This document shows positions 42,972 through 45,520 of a stretch of 45,520 nt of DNA, one piece after another. The DNA lies in the IMG/VR virus record IMGVR_UViG_2579778748_000005, one strand, 5' to 3'. Numbering within the stretch: position 1 is the first letter of the stretch; every line of letters starts with the position of its first letter. The translations under genes and the position numbers were made by a program. Source of the DNA: a virus. Its lineage: Duplodnaviria; Heunggongvirae; Uroviricota; Caudoviricetes. The notes beneath the pieces were generated by a model that saw nothing but the letters and a program-made list of their open reading frames with translations, ran no database searches and had not been told where the DNA came from.

Positions 42972-43445
42972 TTATTTCAGGCACTGAGTGCGGATATAGT
43001 CCTGTGCCCCTTCCAGTTGCTTGTGCATCGTCATCAGCCGCTCTCTGAGGGTGAAATAATCCCGTGTAACGGTGTCTGCCAGTTGGGGGCCGGTTGCATT
43101 ATCCACGCCGGAGGTGGTGGGGGCTTCACGCACGGAGCCTGGACAGGTGGCGTTGATCCGCAGGCGCTTACGACCAGCGGCAACGTCAGCGCGAAGAGTT
43201 TCATTTTCAGCTCTCGCATCGGCTAATTCCCTCGAGTATTTTGCATCGAGCGCAGCAACATCGCGCTGGCGCACCTGCATATCAGTAATGGTTGCGTTCG
43301 CCAGCTTCAGTTCACTGGCTTTGTTATCGCGCTGCGCTTTGTAGGTAATCGCGTTATCACGGTAATGGTCTGTTGCCATCCACAGCGCACCACAGGCCAC
43401 CAGCAGAATAACGATAAACGCGGAAAGCATTCGGTTTATGTTCAC
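42972..43445 (-). CDS. Rz: Spanin Rz (i-spanin), 157 aa
   Basis: [14 protein letters not shown]...DVAAGRKRL matches recalled lambda Rz. Confidence 0.9.
43034..43219 (-). CDS. Rz1: Spanin Rz1 (o-spanin lipoprotein), embedded in Rz in the +1 frame
   Basis: Lipobox VVSAC and [14 protein letters not shown] motif as in lambda Rz1. Confidence 0.8.
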
Positions 43446-43926: not shown

Positions 43927-44460
43927 TTATCTGTCGATACCCCAGCACGCCAGCGCGCTCTCCTGGTCACGACGGGATACCTGACCGTAACAGTTGTTTG
44001 AACGAATACGGCAGTCTCTGCCACCGTCCTTAATCCACCAGCGAATCGCTTCGCAGGCACCTTTTCGATCACCAGCATTAATTCGTCTGTAAAACGTCGA
44101 CGGGAAACACTTACCGGGACCAATGTTGTACGGACAGAATGACGCGATCCCCGCTTTCTGGGGTTCGGTCAGCGGCACTCTGATGTTTTTCTCCACCCAC
44201 GCCAGCGCTTTATCACGCTCAATGGCGTTAACCTGGTCGCATTTTTCCTTCGACAACTTCATGCCCGGAACGACAGGTTTGCCATCCACCATGATGGCAC
44301 CACGGCAGATGGTCCAGATACCTGCACCATCACGGTATGCTGTGGTGTGCTTGCCTTCCTTTTCATCCAGAAACTGGTCGAGAATGTCAGGCGCAGGCGC
44401 ACCAGCGGCAATCAGCGCCAGAACGGCAGCCGACAGGCCGTATTTGATTTTGGTGTTCAT
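43927..44460 (-). CDS. R: SAR-endolysin (phage lysozyme R), 177 aa
   Basis: N-terminal signal-anchor KYGLSAAVLALIAAGA and a lysozyme body matching Stx-phage-type R as recalled. Confidence 0.92.
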   Translation of the reverse strand: MNTKIKYGLSAAVLALIAAGAPAPDILDQFLDEKEGKHTTAYRDGAGIWTICRGAIMVDGKPVVPGMKLSKEKCDQVNAIERDKALAWVEKNIRVPLTEPQKAGIASFCPYNIGPGKCFPSTFYRRINAGDRKGACEAIRWWIKDGGRDCRIRSNNCYGQVSRRDQESALACWGIDR

Positions 44461-44496
44461 GGATATATTAAATATTCAGCCGCTGTCCCTGGCCCA

Positions 44497-45387
44497 CTAA
44501 ATACGCACTTTAAGATAAGTCAGCCCCGGATGAAGCCAGTAAGCCGGCACTTTTTTAAAGGGTGGAGTATTAAAATCACGAAGAAGAGCCTCCCGCACAA
44601 TTGCATCCTTATCAGCACCACTGGCCAGCGCTTCAATCTCAGCAGCTACCTGCAGATATCCCATGCAACGGCCAACGCGCTTCATCAGCCCCTGCTTTTT
44701 ATTGTTCTTCAGGTAATCAATGGCAAATTCAATGAGCTCCTCACTGTGCTGGTGCGATGGAGGTGTTACTTTCCCATTTTCTGAGATGGTTATTTTCCCA
44801 GCATCACCGGATACAACAAAGGATGGCCGGTTACACTCCCATTCCGGGTCACTGAAATTATCATTATGAATACTGAAACACTCTGCGAGATTTCTGCTCA
44901 TCACTTTCCGACAATAATCGTCAAACGCAGCAAACTGCTTTTCATCGCCAGAAGGCACCAATATCGACCATTTCTTATTCAGCTCAACGACGTAGCTCTC
45001 CAGTTTTTCAATACGTGATTCAACATCATCTTTTTCTGACCGCAGTGTTGACGGCGGCATCTTCAGAGAACAAGTAATTCTTCCCGGTAGCTTTCCTTTG
45101 TAGGTTATCAACACATCCTGCGCCTCTAAAATTACGGGGCGCTTTTCCGGCAACGGACCATCCCCTTCACATAACCCGGCAGCAACATCCATGAAAAACT
45201 GCTTCGCCTGCTTTTTCGCCTCAGCTTCGTAAAACTCCAGCGTGGCACCTTCAGTACGGTCAAGACTAATCGCCACATCTGGCAACAACAGCGACGCTTG
45301 CCCGTCACCTTCCGGCTTCACAGTAACAGTAACCTTATCCCCGTAATTATTTATCCCCTTAACAACCAGTTCATATTTTTTATTCAT
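44497..45387 (-). CDS. Hypothetical soluble protein, 296 aa, inserted between holin and endolysin
   Basis: GGGGAGAG SD; start lies 4 nt after the holin stop; no recognisable motifs by eye. Confidence 0.8.
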   Translation of the reverse strand: MNKKYELVVKGINNYGDKVTVTVKPEGDGQASLLLPDVAISLDRTEGATLEFYEAEAKKQAKQFFMDVAAGLCEGDGPLPEKRPVILEAQDVLITYKGKLPGRITCSLKMPPSTLRSEKDDVESRIEKLESYVVELNKKWSILVPSGDEKQFAAFDDYCRKVMSRNLAECFSIHNDNFSDPEWECNRPSFVVSGDAGKITISENGKVTPPSHQHSEELIEFAIDYLKNNKKQGLMKRVGRCMGYLQVAAEIEALASGADKDAIVREALLRDFNTPPFKKVPAYWLHPGLTYLKVRI

Positions 45388-45391
45388 CACT

Positions 45392-45520
45392 TTACTCTCC
45401 CCGCGCCGCCTTACGCCGGTCCTCTTTGATTTTGAAATACAGGTTAGTCAGATATGTCAGCAGCCCAAACAGCAGACTCCCCAGCACGCCTATTGCCGCC
45501 CACTGAGACGGGGAAACCCT
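45392..45520 (-). CDS. S: Holin S, C-terminal part (gene runs off the window)
   Basis: Reverse translation ends ...[32 protein letters not shown], a hydrophobic segment plus charged tail. Confidence 0.75.

Follow-up and report, generated by a model that had tools for sequence, protein, structure and literature searches.

A long-form YdfR/DUF1327-family protein encoded at the holin–endolysin junction of a phage-21-type lysis cassette

Why should a gene of 296 codons stand between the holin and the endolysin of a phage lysis cassette? The question is raised by one end of the window, as we call the whole 45,520-nucleotide stretch of Caudoviricetes DNA analysed here (IMG/VR record IMGVR_UViG_2579778748_000005). 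An initial annotation had described this open reading frame (ORF) as one of unknown function and inferred a moron in the lysis cassette. Our analysis indicates, with near certainty, that it encodes a full-length member of the YdfR/DUF1327 family in its 'long' form. The protein is soluble and cytoplasmic, and is translated from the presumably Q-dependent late transcript through a ribosome-binding site at the end of the pinholin gene; its gene is a regular, optional and highly mosaic occupant of the holin–endolysin junction in phage-21-type cassettes, which combine a pinholin with a signal-anchor-release (SAR) endolysin. The gene is a catalogued one rather than a new system, with a RefSeq name and a PHROG family (1085). 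The new elements are the three-module long architecture, the fact that Salmonella homologues share it, and how closely the gene is tied to the translation signals of the holin.

Where the initial annotation recognised no motif, profile searches gave a clear family identity. Residues 1–100 matched positions 1–88 of the 93-position Pfam profile DUF1327 (PF07041) with a score of 136.4 bits (cut-off 25; E 4e-40), and the entire protein aligned end to end with PHROG 1085 (residues 1–296 on profile positions 1–296 of 296, E 2.2e-188). Moreover, a 1.6-kb stretch of the window is 100% identical to many Escherichia coli chromosomes, in which RefSeq gives the order 'class II holin, YdfR family protein, lysozyme'. 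YdfR of E. coli K-12 (b1555, P76160), from the Qin cryptic prophage, is 47% identical to residues 1–74 of the target (BLASTP, E 6e-21). Its gene lies in the same slot as in the window, between a class II holin gene (essQ) and a lysozyme gene (rrrQ), with Rz/Rz1 (rzpQ) next in order. In addition, a long YdfR-like protein of the Shiga toxin (Stx) phage Stx2_95 (BCI50300.1), also encoded in this slot, is 78% identical over the full length. The DUF1327 family is characterised by single-domain proteins of ~100–115 amino acids, and the target, with 296, is larger. K-12 YdfR (103 amino acids) consists of DUF1327 and a short basic tail, whereas the target continues for another ~190 residues, through a linker and a coiled coil to a C-terminal domain that is conserved.

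The profile and structure searches proposed in the initial annotation found this family but matched no function or fold. No match to the target was found in NCBIfam, and Pfam gave nothing besides DUF1327 for the target and all 126 aligned family members; no enzymatic or nucleotide-binding motif was found in either search. All 11 PHROG matches at E ≤ 1 are labelled 'unknown function', and none is annotated as holin, antiholin or lysis regulator. The same label applies to PHROG 1085 and to the related PHROGs 2091, 406, 36381 and 26186; these related PHROGs span a single module each, in line with the mosaic build of the family. Sequence-profile searches of the PDB with the E. coli and Salmonella alignments returned nothing below E 0.1, and a Foldseek comparison of the predicted structure with the viral BFVD and the PDB gave no credible match.

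The target is a real gene rather than a chance ORF, since it occurs at ≥99% identity in 331 complete E. coli genomes and its ratios of nonsynonymous to synonymous substitution (dN/dS) lie between 0.15 and 0.6. By module, pairwise dN/dS was 0.17–0.60 for A (DUF1327), 0.33–0.46 for B (coiled coil) and 0.15–0.27 for C (C-terminal domain), including pairs with synonymous divergence (dS) up to ~2; such values, from four comparisons, point to purifying selection, on modules A and C in particular. At least 80% of the target length is present in 496 of 5426 complete E. coli genomes, and pieces of it are found in 3084 of them (57%), in up to 8 copies per genome. Truncated, fused, duplicated and split variants are numerous, and the family is narrow. 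An exhaustive hidden Markov model search of 1.84 billion representative proteins with a B+C profile returned only 40 representatives (at the 50% identity level), a scan of genome contigs confirmed 3 loci only, and the family is confined to E. coli/Shigella and Salmonella. These two features, many broken variants and narrow reach, would suit a functionless mosaic filler, either a recombination scar or a decaying remnant in largely cryptic prophages. We consider this very improbable, for the DUF1327 and C-terminal modules keep low dN/dS in divergent pairs, eleven residues are invariant across the E. coli–Salmonella divergence, the intact 296-residue form is conserved in those 331 genomes, and family members occur in inducible Stx phages.

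Module limits were obtained from 120 homologues mapped onto the target (Table 1). The protein has a mass of 33.1 kDa and an isoelectric point (pI) of 5.9, and a hydropathy scan revealed neither a transmembrane segment nor an N-terminal hydrophobic segment (maximum Kyte–Doolittle 19-residue mean 0.75), as the initial annotation had stated. Two AlphaFold2 (AF2) runs reached a mean predicted local distance difference test score (pLDDT) of 54 and then, with a deeper alignment of 126 sequences, of 62. In the model, residues 72–120 are disordered, and module C is composed of a small three-stranded sheet followed by three helices and a terminal helix or conserved tail. Module B is the most indel-prone part of the family in the alignment. 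Module C carries the motif LGRCMGYLQVAAEIEA ... PPFK..P..W..PG..YLK.RI, with LGRCMG(L/Y)LQVAAEIEA ... PPFK..P..W..PG..YLK.R(I) as the form common to E. coli and Salmonella, and the residues invariant in both are L226, G239, R240, L245, Q246, A248, P276, K278, W284, P287 and Y291. The N-terminal domain is acidic (pI 4.9; 4.6 for K-12 YdfR 1–74), while the linker and the C-terminal tail are basic; judged from composition, the acidic domain fits protein docking rather than direct RNA binding. An idea that C159, H212, H214 and C241 form a metal site or enzyme centre was rejected: these residues are invariant in E. coli but variable in Salmonella (GRSMG and GRAMG; HQH replaced by xxH or RR), which leaves the C-domain with no conserved residues of catalytic type.

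Several 'hypothetical proteins' of Salmonella enterica prophages (e.g. P0163 and P0126) have the same three-part architecture as the target. Their C-domain is 40% identical (P0163) and bears the same invariant motif, and their N-domains, although missed by Pfam, are related to DUF1327 by hhalign (probability 90.5%, E 1.3e-6). Full A-B-C proteins have 268–333 residues. Partial forms include A-only proteins of 103–112 residues in most Stx1a and Stx2c phages (the short Stx-phage forms stop at about residue 112, with tblastn coverage of 1–112), A+B proteins of 183 residues, and B+C proteins of 185–213 residues that lack DUF1327, such as that of Stx2_12E129_PPompW, whose gene also directly follows the holin. 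The long form is not a local fusion; because the Salmonella homologues share the layout and their N-domains are related at profile level, the A/coiled-coil/C build is probably ancestral, and the short YdfRs would then be truncations of it. Another candidate relative of DUF1327, an 80-residue ORF located 5′ of the holin in Salmonella (L009:5294-5536, plus strand; EKGKSLDAYEQAA compared with TEGATLEFYEAEA), was dropped after hhalign gave E 0.012 and a probability of 3.6%.

Recombination has also acted inside the target. An alignment with the sister prophage L012 shows strong divergence in the holin and in module A (dS 1.27 for the latter), whereas the sequence from about codon 93 through the entire endolysin is nearly identical (dS 0–0.025 for the coiled-coil and C-terminal modules). 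This change from divergence on the holin side to near-identity on the endolysin side places a breakpoint zone within the ORF, at about codons 66–93.

The junctions of the gene are tight. The sequence confirmed that it begins 4 nucleotides past the holin stop with a good Shine–Dalgarno sequence and ends 36 nucleotides before the endolysin gene R, as had been claimed; its position on the minus strand was a detail left out. A GTG located 3 nucleotides 5′ of the ATG would yield 297 residues, and the 296-residue form corresponds to the RefSeq and homologue start. The arrangement was compared in 80 related IMG/VR contigs (E. coli viral), with the holin visible in 77 and R in 74. The family gene follows the holin in 77 of 77 loci, exactly 4 nucleotides past the stop in 71, and sister loci share the order Q, (cargo), holin, family gene, R, Rz, TonB_C lipoprotein. 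R starts 36–42 nucleotides after the family gene in 52 of 74 loci and ~450–500 nucleotides after it in the other 22; ydfR of K-12 has a stop codon that overlaps the start of rrrQ, in contrast to the 36-nucleotide spacer of the window. With this regularity the gene is a usual resident of the junction, one that K-12 also has, and not the anonymous insert of the initial annotation.

The 22 wide gaps contain an inserted antisense ORF of ~100 residues (phrog_1853), convergent with the family gene and directly downstream of it (e.g. L001:3145-3459, minus strand). The same ORF, 46% identical to the E. coli copy, lies downstream of the family gene in the Salmonella Dublin prophage L009 (4807-5124, minus strand), a different antisense ORF of ~100 residues takes this spot in Salmonella L007, and the window has no phrog_1853 ORF. 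It is possible that the phrog_1853 product is a functional partner or regulator of the family gene.

Outside this group the gene keeps its neighbourhood but not its exact place. In Salmonella the order is Q, HicAB, homologue, antisense ORF, holin (PF16080), SAR-like lysozyme, Rz, with the homologue 5′ of the holin and not in the holin–endolysin gap. An enterobacterial contig has the order homologue, 189-residue ORF, holin (PF04971), SAR-like lysozyme, Rz. Endolysins of all four associated lineages have SAR-like N-termini and are accompanied by class II holins. Family members are always found where the late operon begins, next to a class II holin/SAR-endolysin cassette, and not always in the holin–endolysin gap. 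Antisense cargo also occurs between Q and the holin, namely a DUF6650 protein in E. coli (L012:1797-2543, minus strand) and a HicAB toxin–antitoxin pair in Salmonella (L007:2458-3112, minus strand); the first part of the late operon is evidently a hot spot for cargo. In the viral DNA analysed here, this interval falls outside the window.

The gene is nevertheless optional. Among ~375 phage records with an endolysin of the window's type (≥80% identity), only 106 (~28%) carry any family piece, and in phage TL-2011c the holin is followed directly by R; these observations support an accessory rather than a core lysis role. The 'holin stop + 4 nt + ATG' junction is taken by R in TL-2011c. This junction serves whichever gene follows, R in TL-2011c and ydfR in K-12; a family gene in this place is served by the Shine–Dalgarno sequence embedded in the holin, and R is moved behind the AT-rich 36-nucleotide spacer. 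Since R uses the holin-embedded GGAGAG in TL-2011c and follows a spacer without recognisable Shine–Dalgarno sequence in the window, the presence of the family gene may change endolysin translation.

Such junctions raise the possibility of a modulator of lysis timing specific to pinholin/SAR-endolysin cassettes. In cis, the gene would capture the ribosome-binding site within the holin, which in minimal cassettes serves R, and would leave R behind the 36-nucleotide spacer, with the endolysin:holin ratio thereby retuned; the identical junction of R in TL-2011c and the lack of a recognisable Shine–Dalgarno sequence before R in the window agree with this. In trans, the protein would be a cytoplasmic regulator acting on the charged cytoplasmic tail of the holin or on the SAR endolysin before export, in the manner of T4 RIII and P1 LydB, which are soluble, cytoplasmic antiholins. 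Like the target, T4 RIII, P1 LydB and the Mu releasin gp25 are encoded in or next to the holin–endolysin cassette and co-expressed with it, but the target has no homology to them, is much larger and multi-domain, and is missing in the majority of cassettes of its type. The strict position behind the holin in E. coli, the persistence of the Salmonella and enterobacterial-contig homologues beside the lysis cassette, 5′ of the holin, and the constant association with SAR-like endolysins and class II holins would be expected of a lysis modulator. However, among phages with this endolysin type, the ~72% that have no family gene evidently lyse independently of it. The target has neither a transmembrane segment nor a periplasmic domain, and its PHROG matches include no annotated lysis gene. 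Moreover, the Salmonella gene is parted from its holin by an antisense ORF and that holin belongs to PF16080, so that a specific interaction with the holin tail is not conserved, and position alone is weak evidence where accessory genes generally gather in the region just behind the late promoter. On balance we regard a lysis modulator as unlikely, yet as the main rival of the working model given below, to which it comes close in probability.

Expression of the gene appears to depend on the lysis operon. A simple consensus scan, from which weak promoters could escape, detected nothing like a sigma-70 promoter close to the target on its coding strand, either in the window or in L012. No convincing terminator was found between holin, target and R, including the 36-nucleotide spacer; the sole terminator-like site near the 3′ end, at 44538-44521, is a weak one within the coding sequence, with 3 GC pairs and a poor T-tract. 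Because these scans show neither a promoter of its own nor a convincing terminator, the gene belongs to the late transcript rather than forming a moron unit by itself, and the co-transcription with the lysis genes claimed by the initial annotation is supported. In L012, a strong terminator-like hairpin located ~120 nucleotides 5′ of the holin is consistent with Q-dependent read-through.

Among the traits of a classical moron, the gene shows presence/absence polymorphism; a separate promoter and terminator and lysogenic expression are lacking. A moron-type cargo for defence, superinfection exclusion or host interaction would benefit the lysogen, and it would account for the polymorphism among otherwise similar cassettes, for the strong mosaicism and module shuffling, and perhaps for a GC content slightly below that of R but in the range of other neighbours (~0.44–0.48 across the target in 300-nucleotide windows, compared with 0.52–0.54 in R and 0.44–0.50 in other neighbours). 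In one screen, multicopy K-12 ydfR raised the minimum inhibitory concentration of streptomycin threefold (PMC12924614). However, the junctions are tight (4 and 36 nucleotides), the scans showed neither a promoter nor a convincing terminator flanking the target, and with the L012 hairpin 5′ of the holin expression should need Q antitermination. K-12 ydfR is essentially silent in growing, uninduced cells, with almost no RNA-seq reads (PMC13232886), and a defence role expressed in the lysogen is disfavoured for this reason. The suggestion of a prophage-borne defence gene also found no backing in PADLOC-DB v2, where the best match, PbeC (E 0.018, 11.3 bits), is noise, nor in any enzymatic or nucleotide-binding motif. 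A moron role of this kind is therefore improbable.

As a working model we prefer a late-operon adaptor that acts on RNase E, with a probability of roughly 30%. Its acidic DUF1327 domain, by analogy with the homologous domain of K-12 YdfR, whose first 72 residues are enough for binding, would attach to the catalytic N-terminal half of RNase E of the host; the coiled-coil segment would oligomerise or space the domains; and the conserved C-terminal domain would engage a second partner, either protein or RNA. RNA turnover would then be altered while the long late transcript is made, by a logic analogous to that of T4 Srd or RapZ. The short YdfRs (103–112 residues) would be truncated derivatives that keep the docking domain only, which would explain the near-unchanged transcriptome upon overproduction of K-12 YdfR.

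The central observations come from a study of K-12 YdfR (PMC13232886, RNA Biol 2026). Codons 1–72 of ydfR were isolated three times in a bacterial adenylate cyclase two-hybrid (BACTH) screen in which RNase G was the bait; signals with RNase E were stronger. Full-length YdfR gave a BACTH signal with Rne 1–597, and Strep-tagged YdfR co-purified Rne 1–598 together with DNase-resistant nucleic acid (RNA), whereas its overproduction changed few transcripts and did not impair growth (PMC13232886). The authors compared binders of the N-terminal half of RNase E with T4 Srd and RapZ, and Srd is their precedent for a phage protein that binds this half (PMC13232886). From our own analysis we count in favour of the adaptor model the DUF1327 match, the homology and shared slot with K-12 ydfR, the solubility, the late-operon junction, the Salmonella architecture, the selection, the acidic N-domain and the lack of catalytic residues.

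Several points weigh against the adaptor model. Contact with RNase E is known only for a paralogous domain of 47% identity, from over-expressed constructs in one study, which itself flagged possible contaminants for the RNA signal (PMC13232886), and no functional consequence of the YdfR–RNase E binding has been demonstrated. B+C-only forms without DUF1327 fill the same slot in some functional Stx phages, and hence the docking domain is not obligatory for the role of the C-domain. In addition, a role in RNA decay leaves the strict positional tie to lysis cassettes unexplained, and the AF2 model is moderately confident (mean pLDDT 62) with no fold match that supports any function.

The known RNase E effectors, T4 Srd (which binds and stimulates the N-terminal half), phiKZ Dip, T7 gp0.7 and host RapZ, resemble the target by functional analogy only. 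Srd and RapZ bind the same half of RNase E as the DUF1327 domain of the K-12 paralogue (PMC13232886), and RapZ, like the target, combines an interaction domain with a second domain. However, Srd and gp0.7 are early genes and the target belongs to a late operon. No YdfR is known to alter the activity of RNase E, and no annotated PHROG, PDB or BFVD match indicated homology of the target to Srd, Dip or gp0.7. The probability left over from the readings named here is assigned to a function not yet imagined.

On the minus strand, a lambdoid late region begins at the right end of the window, and features of the locus are collected in Table 1. The holin gene extends past the window end, and its visible tail ends in RKAARGE before the TAA at 45392-45394. 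It is called 'class II holin family protein' in genomes identical to the window, and its full-length L012 homologue belongs to PF04971 (Phage_holin_2_1). The N-terminus of R is a Gly/Ala-rich hydrophobic segment and therefore SAR-like. Two small hydrophobic ORFs between the endolysin and Rz, of 43 residues (phrog_4906) and 60 residues (phrog_1115; C-terminal half transmembrane-like), have been annotated as genes in sister loci; they may encode further membrane proteins that belong to the cassette. Downstream of Rz/Rz1, in the place of bor in lambda, a 108-residue lipoprotein with lipobox MKRRLLLLFLLSVLAVGC has a TonB C-terminal domain (PF03544, E 1e-12); its gene is also found in the sister loci L012, L013 and L016. 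The 'Rz-like spanin' label of PHROG 1267 for this lipoprotein looks like a mis-annotation. Scans of the window for Rfam families and tRNAs returned nothing.

Table 1. Coordinates of the target gene, its modules and neighbouring features in the window
Feature	Position	Strand	Evidence or remark
Class II holin (S21-type pinholin), 3′ part: last 42 codons and TAA	45392..45520	minus	translation; annotation in identical genomes; PF04971 homologue
GGAGAG Shine–Dalgarno sequence of target ORF	45395..45400	minus	within last holin codons, 9 nt before ATG
4-nt spacer AGTG, holin TAA to target ATG	45388-45391	minus	sequence read
Target gene, long-form YdfR-family protein, 296 aa (ATG at 45387; TAG stop 44497-44499)	44497..45387	minus	Pfam, PHROG, RefSeq, conservation, dN/dS
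Module A, aa 1–75, acidic DUF1327 domain: three beta-strands and long helix	45163..45387	minus	PF07041; AF2 pLDDT 67–88
Recombination breakpoint zone, ~codons 66–93	45110..45192	minus	pairwise DNA alignment with sister prophage L012; dS shift
Linker, aa 76–112, basic, predicted disordered	45052..45162	minus	AF2 pLDDT 23–35
Module B, aa 113–176, two long coiled-coil-like helices	44860..45051	minus	AF2 helices 123–143 and 149–171, pLDDT ~60
Module C, aa 177–296, conserved C-terminal domain, without Pfam family	44500..44859	minus	invariant residues; AF2 pLDDT 69–87 for 191–273
Spacer, target TAG to endolysin ATG, 36 nt, AT-rich	44461..44496	minus	without recognisable Shine–Dalgarno sequence
SAR-type endolysin R, 177 aa, PF00959 lysozyme, ATG at 44460	43927..44460	minus	Pfam; sequence
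Small hydrophobic ORF, 60 aa	43588..43770	minus	phrog_1115
Small hydrophobic ORF, 43 aa	43442..43573	minus	phrog_4906
Rz i-spanin, PF03245, end of lysis cassette	42972..43445	minus	Pfam
Rz1 lipoprotein ORF embedded in Rz	43034..43219	minus	ORF list
TonB_C lipoprotein, 108 aa	42334..42660	minus	PF03544

Pieces of the family are common, being present in 57% of complete E. coli genomes and in many Shiga toxin phages, and they lie inside one of the best-studied types of lysis cassette. If the long form is the functional version, the reason for a variable gene within the lambdoid S21–R21 unit becomes testable, and so does the purpose of the reported YdfR–RNase E contact. The timing of toxin release in Stx phages is also touched by the finding. 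A further reading, which we offer as a long shot, is that the long YdfRs represent a class of cytoplasmic accessory to the lysis clock of pinholin/SAR-endolysin phages that has so far gone unrecognised. In these proteins a coiled coil would join a new conserved domain to one that docks on the membrane-bound RNase E/degradosome, and the status of host RNA decay or the stability of the lysis mRNA would feed into the triggering time of the pinholin. If true, this would link RNA turnover to lysis, as no described lysis system does.

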